Part shown: positions 1,362 through 8,961 of the stretch, piece after piece
Numbering within the stretch: the first letter of the stretch is position 1
Layout: every line of letters starts with the position of its first letter
Origin: Thermoproteota archaeon
GTDB lineage: Archaea > Korarchaeota > JAOZGF01 > JAOZFZ01
DNA length: 49,731 nucleotides
Reading direction: 5' to 3'
Assembly: GCA_027492035.1 (NCBI GenBank)
Contig: JAOZFT010000033.1
Location: forward strand, 1-49,731
The notes under the pieces: model-generated
Databases searched by the model: none
Seen by the model: the letters and a program-made list of their open reading frames with translations, nothing else
What the model was told of the DNA's origin: nothing
Position numbers and translations under genes: made by a program

Positions 1362-2240
1362 TTGGTTAACGATATAAAACCAGGGGAATCATTGGCTGCT
1401 TTCTTTAAAATAACTAAACCTAAACAGGCTCTCCTGCTTCTTTTCACAGCCTTTTCAACTTACATTTTAACTTTCAACCTTAAAAAAGCAAGGGTTCCAG
1501 TAGAGGGAATGACTGTTTTCTTTCCTCTTTTATTGGCTTTAATGGGCGTTGACACATTAAATAACTACTTAGACAGAGACATAGATGCTGTAATGGAGAG
1601 GACTAGAAACAGGCCCTTACCTAAGGGGGAACTAAAACCCTTAACTGCTCTACTTTATGGTTCAGCCCTAATTCTTTCAGGGTTAATTTTTTCTGCGGCA
1701 ATTAACCCAAAATTGTTCATTGTAATCTTAATAGGTTCCTTAATTGATTTATTTGCGTATACAAAGTTTTTGAAGAGAAGATCTCCACTAAATATTATAA
1801 TTGGTTCATTTGCAGGTGGAGTTCTTCCTATCTATGGTTGGTTAGCTGCCTATGAATCCTTAACTTTAACTCCCTTCCTAATAAGTTGCTTAATTATTTT
1901 TTGGACGCCTTCACACATCTGGTCCTTAGCTCTCTTTTATAAAGAAGACTACAGAAAAGTGAATGTTCCAATGTTGCCTGTAGTTAAAAGTGACAACTTC
2001 ACCATAAAAGCGATAGCTTCAACGAACATTTTAACCTTTTTAGATTCTTTAATAATAGGTGTGGAAGCCCATTTAACCATTATTTACTTTCTGGTTATTA
2101 TTGCATCAAGTTTATTTTATCTTTCCCTAAACCTGTACGGCTTATTTAATCCTTCCCTGAAAATAGCTAAATACATGTTTAAAGCATCATCTCCATTCCT
2201 TGCTGTAGTTTTAGTTTCAATAATTTGTTTTTCCTTATAA
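1362..2240 (+). CDS. cyoE: protoheme IX farnesyltransferase (heme O synthase), UbiA family
   Basis: NNYLDRDIDAVMERTRNRPLP, YTKFLKRRSPLNIIIG and CyoE-type WTPSHIWSLAL..KEDY..VNVPMLPVV; multi-TM. Start moved to TTG 1362 after GAGGT at 1350. Confidence 0.9.
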   Translation: MVNDIKPGESLAAFFKITKPKQALLLLFTAFSTYILTFNLKKARVPVEGMTVFFPLLLALMGVDTLNNYLDRDIDAVMERTRNRPLPKGELKPLTALLYGSALILSGLIFSAAINPKLFIVILIGSLIDLFAYTKFLKRRSPLNIIIGSFAGGVLPIYGWLAAYESLTLTPFLISCLIIFWTPSHIWSLALFYKEDYRKVNVPMLPVVKSDNFTIKAIASTNILTFLDSLIIGVEAHLTIIYFLVIIASSLFYLSLNLYGLFNPSLKIAKYMFKASSPFLAVVLVSIICFSL

Positions 2241-2338
2241 ATTCTCGAAAAACTCTGTCCCTATCTTTTAAATAGACTCCATAAAACCTTGTCGCTGGAG
2301 GCATTTTCTCTTTTGAAAATAAGTTAGGAGGAGGAAAG

Positions 2339-3478
2339 TTGAAAGGTTTAGGGCAGGAATTAAGGAAATACTTAAATCCATGGTTTTCTTCGCTTGAAAA
2401 CCCTTCTGAAGCCCAAATCAAACTTCTAAAAAAATTAATTAATGTTTACAAAGGAACAAGGTATGGTGAAGAACACGATGTAAAAGAGGTAGGGTCTATT
2501 GAAGACTTTAGGGAGAAATTTCCAGTTGTAAAGTACAATGACCTTAAACCTTACCTGAAAAAAGTTTATGAAGGAGAATACAACGCTATTCTTAATGAAC
2601 CTCCAGTTATTTTTATGATGACAAGAGGAACAACAGGTAAATCAAAAATTATACCTGTCACTAAGTCTGAACTTGATTTAAAAATGGAAATCAGCGGAAG
2701 AGCTTTGTTGAACCATGTTTACAGAACAAAAACCTTTGAAGTACTTGAAGGGTACGATTTAAACCTTAACTTTCCATCAAAAATTGGGGAGATAAGCATT
2801 AAAGGAAAAAGGTATAGTTGTGGGTTCAGTTCAGGGATCTACGCTATGTACAGTGCTGAAAGAAGAAAAATTAAGCTTGTGCCGGAACAGCAAGAAATAG
2901 ACAAGTTAGGGCCTAATTTAACAAGGAAAGGGTGGGAGAAAAGGTTTGAACTTGTTTATGAAAAAGCTAAAGAAAAAAAGGTGACAATGCTGATAGGAGT
3001 GGTTCAAGTTATGATTGAATTTGCGAAATACCTTAAAAGAAAACATAAACTATACCCTAAAAACGTATGGAGACATTTAAAAGTTATCAACGCCTCCAGC
3101 GCCCCGAACATTCAGACAATCTATAAAGAAAGGCTGCAAGCTTTTTATGGAAAGGTTTCAGTTGTTGAAACGTATGCTGCAACAGAAGGTGTTTTTGCGC
3201 AGCAACTTGACGCCAAGCCCTTTGTTTCCCCAAATTATGACTGCTACATTTTCGAAGTTGAAACCAGGAAAGAAGTTAAAATGCTTTATGAAATGAAGAA
3301 GGGAGAAATCGGTAAATTAATTGTTTCTTCTCTCCTTTTCCCTAGATATGACATTGGCGACCTGGTCCGTTGTGAAAGAGGAAAATACTTTGTTGTCATA
3401 GGAAGAGCTAACAAGAAAACATTAATCACCCATTACCTCAACCAATTCCTTAATTACTTCACATTAAGAAAGGAGTAG
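2339..3478 (+). CDS. GH3-family (ANL superfamily) adenylate-forming protein, short form
   Basis: T.YG..H, FREKFPVVKYNDLKPY, P-loop TRGTTGKSKIIP, YAATEG, RYDIGDLV, IGR; RBS GGAGGAGG. Confidence 0.85.
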   Translation: MKGLGQELRKYLNPWFSSLENPSEAQIKLLKKLINVYKGTRYGEEHDVKEVGSIEDFREKFPVVKYNDLKPYLKKVYEGEYNAILNEPPVIFMMTRGTTGKSKIIPVTKSELDLKMEISGRALLNHVYRTKTFEVLEGYDLNLNFPSKIGEISIKGKRYSCGFSSGIYAMYSAERRKIKLVPEQQEIDKLGPNLTRKGWEKRFELVYEKAKEKKVTMLIGVVQVMIEFAKYLKRKHKLYPKNVWRHLKVINASSAPNIQTIYKERLQAFYGKVSVVETYAATEGVFAQQLDAKPFVSPNYDCYIFEVETRKEVKMLYEMKKGEIGKLIVSSLLFPRYDIGDLVRCERGKYFVVIGRANKKTLITHYLNQFLNYFTLRKE

Positions 3479-3535
3479 TACACTTTGGTAACATAGCCTC
3501 TACATAAACAGTTTTGTTGTTGACTTAAAATTTAT

Positions 3536-4945
3536 TTAAAAAACAGGAAAAATTTGCAGGAAATGTACGTAACGTTTAAACATGTATTTCAACATGTGCC
3601 TCCATATTCTTCTCTTCCATTCGTTTCTGGAAAACAGTCCCTCCAGTAAAAAGTGAAGATTCAAGTAGGTTTCCTCGTAACATAAAGAATAAAGCCTCAT
3701 AACTTGCTTCCTTGTTAAATATTTTGTTGGCATTAAAGCATGAGCCATGTCGTATTTGGAGTAGTCCGTGACTTCGATTAAATTTTTGTTTTTGGCTTCA
3801 TCAAATAAATCGGAACCTGGGAAAGGAGTCAAGACAGTGTAAATAGGGAAATCTACACCCAGCTTTTTCATAAAATTTACTTTCTCCATAATTGTTTCAT
3901 ACTTGTCTCCCCAAGTCCCTATAATCATTAATCCTTGACAAATTATGTTATTTTGTTTAAGAAGTTTAACTGCTTTCTTAACAGTTTCTATTTTCAAGTT
4001 TTTCCTTAGAACAGAAAGTTCATTATCGGTAGCTGCTTCAACTCCTATTTGAACCATTAAATTCCCTGCTCTCCTCATTTTAGGAAGTAAATCTCTGTAT
4101 TTCACAACAAAATCAGCTCTTCCTTGATAATACCAGTTCACATCTAAACCTCTCTCCTCTATTTCACTACATATTTTTTCCATGTGCTGTTTATCCACGT
4201 TAAAACAGTCATCTCCAAACCAAATACTCTCTCTTCCATACTTCTGCGTTAACAGTTCAATTTCATCCACTACCTTGGAAGGGTCTCTTTTTCTCCATTT
4301 CCTGTGCCAGAATTTCCACTCTGAACAGAAGAAACAACTAAATGGGCACCCCCTACTTGAAAGTACAACAGAGAATTTACCTAAAACAGGGAAAAAATAT
4401 TTTTTCATGGGTAAAAGATGATAAGCAGGCATCGGTAACTCATCAAGGTTTAGAAGGAGAGAGGGGTCAGGGGTTTCATAAATTTTTCCATTTAACCTGA
4501 AAATCAACCCTTTAACATTGGATAAACTAGTTCCCTTTTCTAAGGCTTTTATTAACTTAGAAAAAATAAGTTCTCCTTCCCCTTTAACAATTAAGTCAAT
4601 TTCAGAATGTTTTTTAAGTATTTCTCTACCCATGAACGTTGCATGGGAACCACCTAGCACGGTTTTAATTTCTCTATCGACTTTTTTAACTACTTCAGCT
4701 GTCTTTAAAGCAGTGTAAAAAAAGGGGGTGATAGCGGAAACCCCTACAACGTCAGGCTTCCTTTTCTCTACTTCAGACGTTAAACTACCCCAATCAATGT
4801 TTTCAGCGTTACAGTCCAGTATCTCTACTTTGTATCCTTCCCTCTCAACCATCGAAGCCAAGTAAGCTAACCCAAGTGGAGGTGAAACATGTTTCCCCAT
4901 CAGTTCCCAGAAAGGTTTAGGAGGTTCAATAAGTAAAACATACAT
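3536..4945 (-). CDS. cobalamin-binding radical SAM protein, BchE-like
   Basis: N-terminal B12 domain (PPLGLAYLA, GGSHAT); RGCPFSCFFC CxxxCxxC; CSEWKFW..RDPSKVVDEIE; TPFPGSDLF. Confidence 0.9.
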   Translation of the reverse strand: MYVLLIEPPKPFWELMGKHVSPPLGLAYLASMVEREGYKVEILDCNAENIDWGSLTSEVEKRKPDVVGVSAITPFFYTALKTAEVVKKVDREIKTVLGGSHATFMGREILKKHSEIDLIVKGEGELIFSKLIKALEKGTSLSNVKGLIFRLNGKIYETPDPSLLLNLDELPMPAYHLLPMKKYFFPVLGKFSVVLSSRGCPFSCFFCSEWKFWHRKWRKRDPSKVVDEIELLTQKYGRESIWFGDDCFNVDKQHMEKICSEIEERGLDVNWYYQGRADFVVKYRDLLPKMRRAGNLMVQIGVEAATDNELSVLRKNLKIETVKKAVKLLKQNNIICQGLMIIGTWGDKYETIMEKVNFMKKLGVDFPIYTVLTPFPGSDLFDEAKNKNLIEVTDYSKYDMAHALMPTKYLTRKQVMRLYSLCYEETYLNLHFLLEGLFSRNEWKRRIWRHMLKYMFKRYVHFLQIFPVF

Positions 4946-4946
4946 T

Positions 4947-5327
4947 CTAGGCCCTTTTCTTAATCTTAATCAATCCCTTAAGAATCAACCACAAACCAAT
5001 CACTACAAAAATAAAAGGCCACCAATCCGTAACTCCGTAAATAAATACTAAACCTAAACCTACAAATAAAACTCCTGCAAAAATCCTTCCTGAAACAGGT
5101 CTCCTATATTCAGGAACTGTTTTTCTAATGAGTGCATCAACCAAAAACAAAATCCCTAAACCAAAAATGAAATATGCCCACCATTCACTCCAAGAAATAA
5201 CCTTTTTAGTTGCTAAGTAAAAGGTTACACCTAAAAGTAAAAGAACAAGGCCACTGAAAACTACACGCAAAGGGTCCTTCTCTCTCTTCTCCCACTCCTC
5301 CTTTTCATTTCTTTCCTTCCAAGCCAT
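4947..5327 (-). CDS. small 4-TM membrane protein (LiaF/DUF5668-like), coupled to the radical SAM gene
   Basis: Hydrophobic helices with WWAYFI and WWPFIFVVIGLWLI; GGAGG RBS; stop lies 1 nt before the next ATG. Confidence 0.75.
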   Translation of the reverse strand: MAWKERNEKEEWEKREKDPLRVVFSGLVLLLLGVTFYLATKKVISWSEWWAYFIFGLGILFLVDALIRKTVPEYRRPVSGRIFAGVLFVGLGLVFIYGVTDWWPFIFVVIGLWLILKGLIKIKKRA

Positions 5328-5755: not shown

Positions 5756-7012
5756 GTGACACTTTTATGGGTGAATGTAAAAAGGGGAGTCGTAAAAAAT
5801 AGTTTCAACTTAATTTTTGACGCAGAATTACTTGAACCATTTAAAAAACAGAGAATATATGTATTGGATTCACCAAGAGAATTAGGTCAGTCATCTCCCC
5901 TCTACCCTTTTGCATCAGGCGACCAAGTATTTACAGAATACTTAGATCTTCTATTGAACAAAATACATGTAGATTTTGTGGAGATAGACAATCCAGTAGG
6001 AAGTTCAACAAAAACTAGACACGCCGTAATTGCAACATCGAAATATAAAAAAGTAGTTATTCATTTAAGAGCTCATAGTTTCGACGTTGATTATTTAATT
6101 AAAAACGTTAAAGAAGCAAGGAACGTAGCTGTTTTTACAAGTGCTAATTCAAATGATTTAAAAATGTCTTGGGAGAAACATTTTTCAGAAGTAATTAATG
6201 CTTTGACTTACTTACTTGACTCCTCTTTAAACGTAAGGTTTGCAGTAGAAAACTTTTTCGTTAACTCTAGAAACAAAAAATTAAGGAAAAAAATGTTTAA
6301 ACTCTACAAAGAAGCTGTTTATTTAGGTGTGCACGAACTGGATTTACCTGACACTAGCGGGCTTTCCAACCCTTTAGAAATGTATAAGTTAAGCCGTTGC
6401 TTAATTGAAACATTCAGAAATGAAGAAGTAACTATACACATTCATTCACATGCTTCTCCAGGACATGAACCTTTAGAAAAAGCTGTTTTTGCTTTAGCTG
6501 CAGTTTTAGCTGCAAAGAAAAAGGCATGTATTCACACAACAATTAATGGGAGAGCTGAAAGAGGATACATACCTTCTCTCGTGGATGTAACTGTTCGTTT
6601 AAAAGAGTTAGGTGCAAAAACTAAGATTAACTTTAAAGAATTACTGAACCTTTACCCTCTATATTTAAAACTTTTCTGGTGGTCCCCAGCATTTAACGGT
6701 TTACATCCGCCAATATGGCTTGACCCTTCAGTGAATGCACATTATTCAGGAACACATTACTCAAAAATACTTATGGATTCCTCTGACTACGACTCAAACC
6801 CTTTTTCCAAGTCTTCAATTAAAATTTCACACGTCAGCGGCAAACACGTAATCGCATCTTTAACTAAAAAATACTCAATAAAAACAGACAGTAAAAAGGC
6901 TTCATTGAAACTGAGAGAAATTCTTTCAACTCGAGAAGCTTTCAGGTACCTCTCTTCAAATGGGGAATTGAAAGAGTTAAGTTTACTGGAGGAAATAACT
7001 CAGGAAAGTTAA
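5756..7012 (+). CDS. highly divergent DRE-TIM metallolyase (homocitrate/isopropylmalate synthase-like)
   Basis: VLDSPRELGQ (cf. DSTLREGEQ), LPDTSG, HIHSH, HTTINGRAERG, AHYSGTH, SHVSGKH; sits upstream of lysX. Confidence 0.7.
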   Translation: MTLLWVNVKRGVVKNSFNLIFDAELLEPFKKQRIYVLDSPRELGQSSPLYPFASGDQVFTEYLDLLLNKIHVDFVEIDNPVGSSTKTRHAVIATSKYKKVVIHLRAHSFDVDYLIKNVKEARNVAVFTSANSNDLKMSWEKHFSEVINALTYLLDSSLNVRFAVENFFVNSRNKKLRKKMFKLYKEAVYLGVHELDLPDTSGLSNPLEMYKLSRCLIETFRNEEVTIHIHSHASPGHEPLEKAVFALAAVLAAKKKACIHTTINGRAERGYIPSLVDVTVRLKELGAKTKINFKELLNLYPLYLKLFWWSPAFNGLHPPIWLDPSVNAHYSGTHYSKILMDSSDYDSNPFSKSSIKISHVSGKHVIASLTKKYSIKTDSKKASLKLREILSTREAFRYLSSNGELKELSLLEEITQES

Positions 7013-7036
7013 TAAAATGGAAAGGAGGAAAAATAA

Positions 7037-7891
7037 ATGGTGAAAATAGGTTTACTGGTGGATAAAATAAGACTGGATGAAAAATTAATTCTGCAAGCAG
7101 CTGAGAAACAAAACGTAGATATAGAAATAATAGACACTTCAAATTTAATGTTAAACATTACTGATCTCCAAAGTAATGTTTATCCTGACGTAGATGTTTT
7201 CCTTCAAAGATGTGTAAGTACACTTCGAGGCCTGTACATAACACAAATCCTTGAAGCTAAAGGGTGCACTGTCATAAACGATTTTAATTCGTCTCAACTT
7301 TGCCTAGATAAAGTAAGATGCTCAATAAAACTTACACAAAACAAAATACCTACACCTAAAACTTACGTGTGTTTCACGGAAAAAGCAGGACTTGAAGCCC
7401 TTAAAAAAATAGGGTATCCGGCTATTTTGAAGCCAATAATGGGAAGCTGGGCCCGTTTAGTTGCTAAAATAAACGATGAAGAAGCAGCTAAATCAATTTT
7501 TGAAGACAGGAACATGATGGGGGTTTGGTACAGTATTTTTTACCTTCAAGAATTCATTAATAAACCAGGGAAAGATATACGTTCAACAGTTATTGGAGAT
7601 AAAGTTGTTGCGGCAATTTATCGCATAAACACTAGTGATTGGCGAACTAACACAGCAAGAGGAGCAAAGGCTGTTAAATGCGAAATAAACCCTAGACTTG
7701 AAGAATTAAGTTTAAAAGCTGCTGAAGCAATGGGGGGAGGAATGTACGGTGTAGATTTAATGGAGACAAATGGGGACTATGTTGTCCATGAAGTAAACCA
7801 CTCTTTTGAATTCAAAAATGTTCAAAGAGTAACAGGTGTGGATGTAGCCAGTGAAATAATAAAATATTTAGTTGATGTTATGAAGAAATAA
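7037..7891 (+). CDS. lysX: LysW:alpha-aminoadipate ligase (RimK-family ATP-grasp)
   Basis: KPIMGSWARLV, FYLQEFINKPGKDIR, AAIYR, WRTNTARG, EVNHSFEFKN (LysX-type rather than ArgX-type signatures). Confidence 0.85.
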   Translation: MVKIGLLVDKIRLDEKLILQAAEKQNVDIEIIDTSNLMLNITDLQSNVYPDVDVFLQRCVSTLRGLYITQILEAKGCTVINDFNSSQLCLDKVRCSIKLTQNKIPTPKTYVCFTEKAGLEALKKIGYPAILKPIMGSWARLVAKINDEEAAKSIFEDRNMMGVWYSIFYLQEFINKPGKDIRSTVIGDKVVAAIYRINTSDWRTNTARGAKAVKCEINPRLEELSLKAAEAMGGGMYGVDLMETNGDYVVHEVNHSFEFKNVQRVTGVDVASEIIKYLVDVMKK

Positions 7892-7941
7892 AAATAGGTA
7901 CTTCTCAAAATTTCAAAAATTTATAGAAAGGTTTCTTTGTC

Positions 7942-8961
7942 TTGAAGTACAAAATAGCTGTGATAGAAGGAGATGGTGTAGGCCCTGAAATAATGAATTC
8001 AGCTTTAGAGATCCTAAATACTTTAACTCTTCCATTTGAATACATAAAACTTGATGTAGGCTATAAAAAATGGATGGAAACAGGTGAAGCAATAAGTCAA
8101 GGCGACATGGATATTTTGAAAAAGTGTGACGCTACCTTAAAAGCCCCCCTTTACACTCCTTCATCAAAAGAAAAGAATTTTTCAAGTGTTACTTTAACTA
8201 TTAGGAAAGAACTTGATGTTTATGCAAACATAAGACCCATAAAAACGTTTCCAGGAATATCTCCATTCACCGGCCTTGACCTAATAATAGTTAGGGAAAA
8301 CACTGAAGGACTTTACTCTGGTGTTGAACATTCCGTCAACAACGGAGCTGTCACTGAAAGAATAATAACTAAAGCTTCATGTGAAAAAATCTGTAAATAC
8401 GCTTTCAATCTAGCTTTAAAAGAGGGAAGAAGAAAAGTAACTTGTGTACATAAAGCAAATATATTGAAAAAAACTTGCGGGTTATTTAGAGAAACCTTTT
8501 TTGAAACAGCCAAAGACTATCCTTCAATTGAAGCAGAAGAAACTCTTGTGGATGCATGTGCCTACAAATTAATTCGTAACCCTTCAAGTTTCGACGTAAT
8601 AGTTACAACCAACATGTTTGGAGACATATTATCAGATGAAGCAGCTGCTTTAACAGGTAGTCTAGGTCTCGTAGGCAGTTGCAATATAGGTGAAAAACAT
8701 GCAGTTTTTGAACCTATTCACGGTACAGCTCCTGATATTGCGAATGAAGGAGTAGCTAACCCTATAGGAATGATAATGGCTGCAAGTTACATGTGCAACT
8801 TTTTAGGGTTTAAAAATGAAGGAGAAAAAATAAGGAAGTCAGTAACAGAGGTTTTAAAGGAAAAGAAAAATTTAACCCCTGACCTTGGAGGCAAATTAAA
8901 CACTAAACAGTTAACTAATAAAATCAAGGAAGTGTTGATTCAGAAGTATTTAATTCAATAA
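7942..8961 (+). CDS. isocitrate/isopropylmalate dehydrogenase family, likely homoisocitrate dehydrogenase
   Basis: EGDGVGPEI, RENTEGLY, HKAN, TTNMFGDILSDEAA, FEPIHGTAPDIA; context with lysX. Confidence 0.85.
   Translation: MKYKIAVIEGDGVGPEIMNSALEILNTLTLPFEYIKLDVGYKKWMETGEAISQGDMDILKKCDATLKAPLYTPSSKEKNFSSVTLTIRKELDVYANIRPIKTFPGISPFTGLDLIIVRENTEGLYSGVEHSVNNGAVTERIITKASCEKICKYAFNLALKEGRRKVTCVHKANILKKTCGLFRETFFETAKDYPSIEAEETLVDACAYKLIRNPSSFDVIVTTNMFGDILSDEAAALTGSLGLVGSCNIGEKHAVFEPIHGTAPDIANEGVANPIGMIMAASYMCNFLGFKNEGEKIRKSVTEVLKEKKNLTPDLGGKLNTKQLTNKIKEVLIQKYLIQ

Follow-up and report, generated by a model that had tools for sequence, protein, structure and literature searches.

Here we report a three-gene cassette in a 49,731-nucleotide stretch of DNA from a Thermoproteota archaeon (contig JAOZFT010000033.1, assembly GCA_027492035.1), the whole of which is called the window. 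The cassette lies in the interval 1362..5327 and combines a short GH3-like adenylate-forming ligase, a small membrane protein (memb) and, in one subclade, a BchE-like class B (B12-binding) radical S-adenosylmethionine (SAM) enzyme. We are highly confident that these genes make up a real conserved module. The membrane-linked GH3 ligase/radical SAM cassette is an undescribed variant of known enzyme kinds, and a literature search, covering few subscription journals, returned no description of the short GH3 form, its memb partner or the trio. G000 denotes the genome of the window, and other G and L numbers denote the genomes and loci of this analysis.

A conserved cassette of ligase, membrane protein and radical SAM genes

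Four open reading frames (ORFs) lie within the interval, two on the + strand and two on the − strand, and the two pairs converge, as the first-pass annotation of this DNA had read them. The GH3-like gene (2339..3478, + strand) faces the radical SAM gene (3536..4945, − strand) across a convergent intergenic spacer of 57 bp between the two stop codons (3479..3535). The memb gene (4947..5327, − strand) lies directly upstream of the radical SAM gene, and as a single nucleotide separates the memb stop codon from the radical SAM start, the two are almost certainly co-transcribed. The fourth ORF encodes a heme O synthase-like protein and is treated below.

GH3 loci were gathered by alignment search, a single-protein scan having yielded no confirmed relative, and the best 80 of 591 confirmed relatives in genomes and the best 80 of 548 in metagenomes were taken with flanks of up to 7 kb in both directions. 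Most of the sampled genome loci came from one class, Bathyarchaeia. With a profile started from the window memb, which was iterated on the same ORF set and whose scores Glu/Lys-rich low-complexity and transmembrane (TM) sequence can inflate, a memb-like gene was found adjoining GH3 in 80/80 genome loci, in 72 of them convergent and only a few bp away, and in the other 8 immediately upstream in the same orientation; single-sequence phmmer found it in 23 of these 80. Among the metagenome loci it was present in 69/80, and 8 of the 11 misses were on contigs ending within ~360 bp of GH3. Because the iterated profile may be inflated, the neighbours were also clustered independently by blastp. Across 159 GH3 loci, memb occurred in 134 with a median offset of 3 bp, and beyond two membrane proteins, memb and the second one described below, every other cluster was present in at most 32 loci.

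The radical SAM gene marks a subset of these loci. On a radical SAM profile (A2), orthologues scored 538–829 bits and paralogues at most 375. An orthologue was adjacent in 2/80 genome (L011 and L024) and 14/80 metagenome GH3 loci, and the linked loci carried the GH3 sequences closest to that of the window. In a tree of 156 GH3-like sequences (FastTree, LG+gamma, rooted on G026), the radical-SAM-linked sequences, window included, fell into one clade of 25 leaves with a support of 0.83; 14 of its leaves were linked, 7 could not be judged because their contigs were too short, and 4 were unlinked; all 93 other judgeable loci outside the clade were unlinked. The search was also run from the radical SAM side. 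The orthologues it gave (L089, G026 and G376) all had an adjacent GH3-like gene; among the matches listed for genomes there were 77 paralogues and 1 orthologue, and no GH3-like neighbour was found at 77 + 16 radical SAM paralogue loci. When 401 Chloroflexota-side genomes were searched, with 4 candidates scored per genome, 2 had a radical SAM orthologue.

The arrangement of the trio varied. The order was GH3> <radical SAM <memb in the window, GH3> <memb <radical SAM in most loci and <GH3 radical SAM> memb> in G026, and no flanking gene was conserved across 16 trio loci. The cassette was found in records labelled archaeal and in records labelled bacterial, namely Bathyarchaeia, Methanomethylicia and some Chloroflexota. 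The possible inflation of the memb profile tells against the cassette as a fixed unit, as do three other observations: L203, L208 and perhaps L207 have room downstream of GH3 but no clear memb gene; G044 carries its radical SAM orthologue on a contig other than that of its GH3-memb pair, with no GH3 nearby; and the mostly convergent orientation of GH3 and memb means that the two do not share a transcript.

In one sub-lineage of Bathyarchaeia, represented by L015 and some 30 related loci, the GH3-memb pair was flanked on one side by eIF-2B-like, RuBisCO large-subunit-like and nucleoside-phosphorylase-like genes, and on the other side by GT2, PMT-type and GT87 glycosyltransferase genes.

The GH3-like ligase ends at the hinge

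The GH3-like protein, of 379 aa, was assigned from its Pfam match, motifs and structural model. It matched PF03321 with 100.5 bits against a cut-off of 23.6 and had a weak AMP-binding match. Three nucleotide motifs were invariant in 24 homologues: the P-loop-like motif (T95, R96, G97, T99, G100 and K103), the 'YxATEG' motif (Y279, T282, E283 and G284), and the 'RYDIGD' motif (R336, Y337 and D341) together with the hinge residues G355 and R356. In a profile alignment ending at the 'FVGRQK' hinge of GH3.15, all three aligned to their GH3.15 counterparts. An AlphaFold2 (AF2) model with a predicted local distance difference test score (pLDDT) of 93.1 was compared by Foldseek. The top 20 structures were all plant GH3 proteins, with query and target TM-scores (TMq and TMt) of 0.72–0.76 and about 0.5, respectively, followed by PaaK-type ligases. 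From its motifs, the protein presumably performs adenylation and then amide formation, as plant GH3 enzymes do.

About 23 residues past the 'GR' hinge, the chain terminates in one hydrophobic helix, which indicates that the N-terminal ANL/GH3 domain is the only one present and that there is no C-terminal (lid) domain. Profile search for the GH3_C domain (PF23572) gave no match on this protein and none in G000 or its 5 relatives, and no longer fused GH3-like form was found, which is weak evidence. The family is sizeable: 2,421 of 4,498 candidate proteins matched at E ≤ 0.001, and the best 120 were 320–427 aa long. Where the organism was named, they came from Bathyarchaeota/Bathyarchaeia, Methanosuratincola and Chloroflexota. 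The amphipathicity of the terminal helix was gauged by its hydrophobic moment, whose percentiles spanned 0.19–1.00 across 24 sequences of the family. As the C-terminal domain is absent, the protein represents a new short GH3 variant and not a typical member.

In G023, the GH3-like gene appeared split into two open frames, one of 168 aa and one of 138 aa (G023:C15:3500-3853 and 4146-4514; L007 and L008), so it is probably broken or frameshifted.

The small membrane protein

The memb protein of the window has 126 aa and four clear TM helices, and it reached no family cut-off. It is at best LiaI/LiaF-TM-like, as judged from a sub-cut-off match to PF22570 (21.1 bits against a cut-off of 27) and from its embedding neighbours; the nearest language-model (Atlas) clusters were LiaI-LiaF-like TM proteins (score 0.95), with LiaI/LiaF families in 57% and 31% of the top-cluster members. 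A short Glu/Lys-rich N-terminal tail precedes the helices, which carry WW motifs, and there is a basic loop reading 'YRRP..GR'. Across the family, the number of TM helices is two or four, WW motifs recur and helix 2 is followed by a basic 'RRP' segment; in many Bathyarchaeia proteins a CPxCG...CPxCG zinc ribbon precedes the Glu/Lys-rich tail. Two motifs are conserved among members of the trio clade, 'EKW(R)RDP' in the juxtamembrane region and 'YRRP.FGR' in a loop. The G026 protein has only 65 aa and two helices, and its N-terminus is charged in the same way. The positive-inside rule would place every soluble part of memb on the cytoplasmic side.

A second four-helix membrane protein of ~178 aa, belonging to no Pfam family, was found beside the first in 88/159 GH3 loci, mostly on the opposite strand (e.g., L012 8745-9275 + and L014 8592-9113 +), and was picked up by the memb profile. 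G000 has no copy of it.

The radical SAM enzyme

The radical SAM protein (469 aa) matched both PF02310 (86.3 bits) and PF04055 (65 bits), and its cluster motif reads CPFSCFFC; the three cysteines of the CxxxCxxC pattern, C200, C204 and C207, were invariant in 23 sequences. The best NCBIfam match was BchE (TIGR02026), with residues 5-459 aligned to model positions 4-459 at 306 bits, which is under the cut-off of 481.35. A second tier consisted of HpnR (177.8 bits), HpnJ (162.5 bits) and TIGR04072 (147.3 bits), none of which passed. Judged by these matches, the protein is a class B enzyme and not BchE. Its AF2 model (pLDDT 93.2) resembled AprD4, TsrM, OxsB, MgmA, CysS and TokK about equally, and since class B structures match to about the same degree, the fold names no substrate.

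Related genes were seen elsewhere. G000 has a second BchE-like B12 radical SAM gene (C24:20377-24711, L288), which scored ~365 bits on profile A2 and sits between a SPASM radical SAM gene and a third radical SAM gene. Radical SAM matches with E ≤ 1e-100 were present in 16/43 genomes of the phylum including G000, at paralogue level except for the cassette orthologues of G000 and G026. On the Chloroflexota side, the orthologue G376:C66:21101-22489 (L271) has one in-frame TAA, and its GH3-memb-radical SAM arrangement is intact.

A proposed mechanism and its alternatives

We tentatively propose, as possible rather than probable, that the cassette encodes a membrane-docked amide-forming ligase and an oxygen-independent tailoring enzyme acting on one membrane-associated carboxylate. 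In this scheme, memb would expose its charged N-terminal tail, basic loop and C-terminus to the cytoplasm and would dock the lid-less ligase, plus the radical SAM enzyme where present, at the membrane surface. The ligase would adenylate the carboxylate of a membrane-associated molecule and join it to an amine, giving an amide, as plant GH3 enzymes and OlsH do. The radical SAM enzyme would then carry out an O2-independent C-H functionalisation on the same molecule, which could be a desaturation or oxidation beside the masked carboxyl, as BchE performs beside a methyl ester, or a methylation. Our leading guess for the substrate is a lipid or lipid-like acid.

The chemistry of OlsH and BchE provides two precedents that make this scheme coherent. 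OlsH, a GH3-like lyso-ornithine lipid synthetase of planctomycetes, uses ATP to attach fatty acids to the amino group of ornithine by N-acylation (PMC12493201). For BchE, a second paper reports that the enzyme oxidises beside the methyl ester in vitro and gives an α,β-unsaturated ester by-product (PMC13598231).

Some points count against this scheme. The similarity of the GH3-like protein to OlsH is weak (51.4 bits on model NF052613, against a cut-off of 620), and the occurrence of the cassette in both archaeal and bacterial records speaks against a substrate peculiar to the ether lipids of archaea. As the C-terminal domain is normally required in ANL enzymes, the short GH3-like form might not be a conventional ligase. 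A predicted complex of the GH3-like protein with memb scored 0.09 against a mark of 0.32, which counts neither way. A bolder form of the proposal, which we rate as unlikely, is that the memb partner replaces the missing C-terminal domain and that anaerobic archaea make a hitherto unknown class of amide-linked membrane conjugates, which in the radical-SAM-bearing subclade the BchE-like enzyme then desaturates, oxidises or cyclises beside the amide carbonyl without oxygen.

If this bolder form were true, the products could be, for example, amino-acid-bearing lipids in anaerobic archaea, which the literature consulted states to be absent from archaea. In anoxic sediments, few uncultured archaea are as abundant as Bathyarchaeia and their relatives, whose membrane and cofactor chemistry is mostly inferred. 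The short GH3-like family has an obligate memb partner and no published function, which makes it a clear and cheap target of two or three small genes, and a minimal GH3/ANL enzyme working without a lid domain would interest enzymologists.

The alternative that survives best makes memb itself the substrate. The lid-less ligase, its active site open, would conjugate or cross-link carboxylates or lysines of the Glu/Lys-rich tail, and the radical SAM enzyme would modify a memb residue, as do the B12 radical SAM enzymes that modify methyl-coenzyme M reductase. This fits the obligate pairing of enzyme and small protein, the presence of the Glu/Lys-rich tail in all members and the two motifs conserved in the trio clade. 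The structural neighbours of the radical SAM enzyme include the protein glutamine methylase MgmA, but those matches do not discriminate substrates. No acceptor residue is conserved family-wide, the two-TM Bathyarchaeia forms are without the 'DP' motif, and the genes are usually convergent instead of forming a precursor-enzyme operon. GH3/ANL enzymes, moreover, are known for acting on small-molecule carboxylates. On balance we consider this alternative unlikely.

A signalling or stress module was also weighed, in which the GH3-like enzyme would make a small amide conjugate as a signal, in the way that plant GH3 enzymes conjugate hormones, and the LiaF/LiaI-like proteins would sense or transduce envelope stress. 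The resemblance of memb to LiaI-LiaF TM regions, the N-terminal zinc ribbon of many memb members and the frequent second, related membrane protein speak for such a role, whereas no gene for a regulator, a kinase or a DNA-binding protein is conserved beside the GH3-memb pair, and the LiaF-TM match is under the Pfam cut-off. We regard this role as improbable.

Tetrapyrrole genes and the cyoE-like neighbour

The first-pass annotation had noted that the window holds no heme-copper oxidase, ctaA or hem/ahb gene, and family scans of 42 window ORFs likewise revealed none. It had also suggested a genome-wide search for coxA/ctaA and heme biosynthesis genes. When this was run on G000 (1.87 Mb, 42 contigs), there was no match to COX1, CtaA, cytochrome bd subunit I, 5-aminolevulinate dehydratase (ALAD) or porphobilinogen (PBG) deaminase, and control genomes matched as expected. 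Absence from a genome with a completeness of 93.29% is not proof; still, ALAD and PBG deaminase, which mark the trunk pathway of tetrapyrroles independently of each other, are both missing. Given these absences, it is unlikely that the substrate in this organism is heme or another porphyrin. As G000 nevertheless has at least 3 B12-binding radical SAM genes, it must import corrinoids.

That combination could suit a role in corrinoid handling, where the ligase would re-form an amide on the side chain of a salvaged corrinoid and the B12 radical SAM enzyme would be linked through its cofactor. Corrinoid maturation does include amide formation at carboxylates. We find this reading, drawn purely by analogy, very improbable, for genes of cobalamin salvage or transport are not conserved around the cassette and most GH3-memb loci are without any radical SAM gene.

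The remaining ORF of the interval, on the + strand, begins at 1209 and ends at 2240. From its first TTG it encodes 343 aa, and from a start at 1362 (1362..2240) 292 aa; the later start is likely because the orthologue in G001, the closest relative and the only genome of the same family, has only 285 aa. Pfam and NCBIfam matches identified a heme O synthase-like UbiA prenyltransferase (cyoE/ctaB-like). The protein scored 160 bits on PF01040 (UbiA) and passed the heme o synthase equivalog TIGR01473 (227.1 bits against a cut-off of 210.3), while it was below two narrower heme o synthase models (NF003349, 209.4 against 246; NF003348, 139.7 against 285). Among 9,127 homologues, one was 60% identical and the next at most 39%, and some were ~600 residues long and aligned through their C-terminal half only.

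In the GH3 loci, the cyoE-like ORF was found in 0/80 from genomes and 0/80 from metagenomes (phmmer, E ≤ 1e-5). The 60%-identical orthologue in G001 (G001:C203, L186 3719-4576) has HerA-, Mre11- and Rad50-like neighbours; G001 has no GH3-like match, and its closest radical SAM protein is a 34%-identical paralogue. Conversely, G026 has kept GH3, radical SAM and memb and has no cyoE-like match. The cyoE-like gene is a chance neighbour, outside the conserved cassette. The undescribed conserved locus of the first-pass annotation thus stands for the GH3-like, memb and radical SAM genes, which recur together in several orders far beyond chance, and falls for the cyoE-like gene, whose homologues are not co-located with the cassette elsewhere and whose adjacency does not exceed chance.

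Between the cyoE-like and GH3-like genes lies a spacer of 98 bp (2241..2338, + strand), which, on reading its sequence, contains a TATA-like stretch rich in A/T as well as GGAGGAGG, a run resembling a ribosome-binding site, just 5ʹ of the TTG start of the GH3-like gene. Because of these two elements, the GH3-like gene may have its own promoter and a transcript separate from that of the cyoE-like gene.

These results bear on the substrate that had been proposed at first, a single porphyrin on which all four genes, cyoE included, would act to give a prenylated, conjugated or anaerobically oxidised heme. The cyoE-like protein does pass a heme o synthase model, its gene is co-directional with the GH3-like gene at a distance of 98 bp, and BchE, the best named relative of the radical SAM enzyme, acts on a porphyrin propionate ester. 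Nevertheless, comparative genomics has largely refuted this idea, which is now hardly credible: the cyoE-like gene and the cassette occur apart from each other, tetrapyrrole markers and heme-using oxidases were without match in the genome, the radical SAM enzyme fails the BchE cut-off, and the loci of true BchE-type proteins in phototrophs are without GH3 and memb. The label of a novel heme tailoring locus was a tempting, unsupported annotation that the present result removes. Equally hard to credit is that the trio has no functional link and stays together by inherited synteny, as kin share gene order and most sampled loci are from Bathyarchaeia, because the adjacency persists through three gene orders, variable flanks and records of different phyla and domains, which indicates functional coupling, and radical SAM paralogues never adjoin a GH3-like gene.

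The cyoE-like protein itself is an orphan, since COX1 was found in 0/5 relatives (0/6 with G000) and ALAD in G001 only, while cyoE-like genes were present in 4/5 relatives (G001, G002, G020 and G023; 5/6 with G000). In archaea without an oxidase, heme-O-synthase-like genes call for another explanation. In G001, a second heme-O-synthase-like UbiA paralogue adjoins the gene of a TIGR04190 (Ta0216-family) B12 radical SAM protein of ~580 aa (G001:C146, L188, 6421-7461 + and 7561-9297 −), and in G020 a cyoE-like gene lies 2.4 kb from a Ta0216-family radical SAM gene (G020:C53, L189, 5360-6286 + and 8675-10429 +). The G000 orthologues of this UbiA paralogue and of the radical SAM gene are on separate contigs (G000:C31:67066-68061 and G000:C20:1-1173); the latter gene is cut by the contig start, and the visible neighbours of the former are other genes. 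A link between cyoE and radical SAM genes by way of this pair was considered and set aside, the different contigs giving it no support in G000.

Other genes of the window

The remaining genes of the window belong to ordinary metabolism and transport. A lysine-biosynthesis-type cluster occupies 5756-8961; it includes LysX (327.7 bits, above the cut-off), a homoisocitrate/isopropylmalate dehydrogenase gene and an HMGL-like (homocitrate/isopropylmalate synthase-like) gene that is very divergent (74 bits against a cut-off of 413) and has a doubtful GTG start. The ORF at 713-1087 on the + strand, of 124 aa, matches no family, has an odd composition rich in lysine, and may not be a gene. With PADLOC defence models, no match was obtained for the GH3-like, memb and cyoE-like proteins, and the radical SAM protein gave only a generic match of 58 bits to the candidate PDC-M51A.

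Comparison with known systems

Plant GH3 amido synthetases (JAR1/GH3.11, GH3.5, GH3.6, GH3.12 and GH3.15) have the same N-terminal fold as the GH3-like protein (Foldseek E about 1e-16) and share its three nucleotide-binding motifs. At 550–610 aa they are longer than the GH3-like proteins of ~375 aa, which are 13–18% identical to them, lack the C-terminal domain with which the plant enzymes close their active site, and are paired obligately with a small membrane protein. For a prokaryotic GH3, no functional precedent other than OlsH was found; OlsH is a soluble, two-domain protein of 526 aa with an alpha/beta-hydrolase partner, OlsI, whereas the window protein has no C-domain and other partners.

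LiaI and LiaF (PF22570 and PF18917) show a TM hairpin pattern similar to that of memb, and LiaI is known to anchor a soluble partner at the membrane. Unlike them, memb has a Glu/Lys-rich tail, often a zinc ribbon within its family, and no Lia or Psp partner genes nearby.

BchE, the cobalamin-dependent anaerobic Mg-protoporphyrin IX monomethyl ester cyclase, resembles the window radical SAM enzyme over its full length and has the same B12-binding plus radical SAM architecture; BchE-type proteins of phototrophs are 31–34% identical to it. From the paper on BchE cited above, the window enzyme could possibly act beside a masked carboxyl in a BchE-like manner. Unlike BchE, it has no chlorophyll or tetrapyrrole genes around it and is linked to GH3 and memb. 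The same class of B12 radical SAM enzymes also includes HpnR, HpnJ, the ladderane-associated TIGR04072, the archaeal methylases of glycerol dialkyl glycerol tetraethers (GDGTs) and the desaturase Ted, and in Bathyarchaeia, according to a recent preprint (bioRxiv 10.1101/2025.10.20.683597), B12 radical SAM enzymes modify lipid tails anaerobically.

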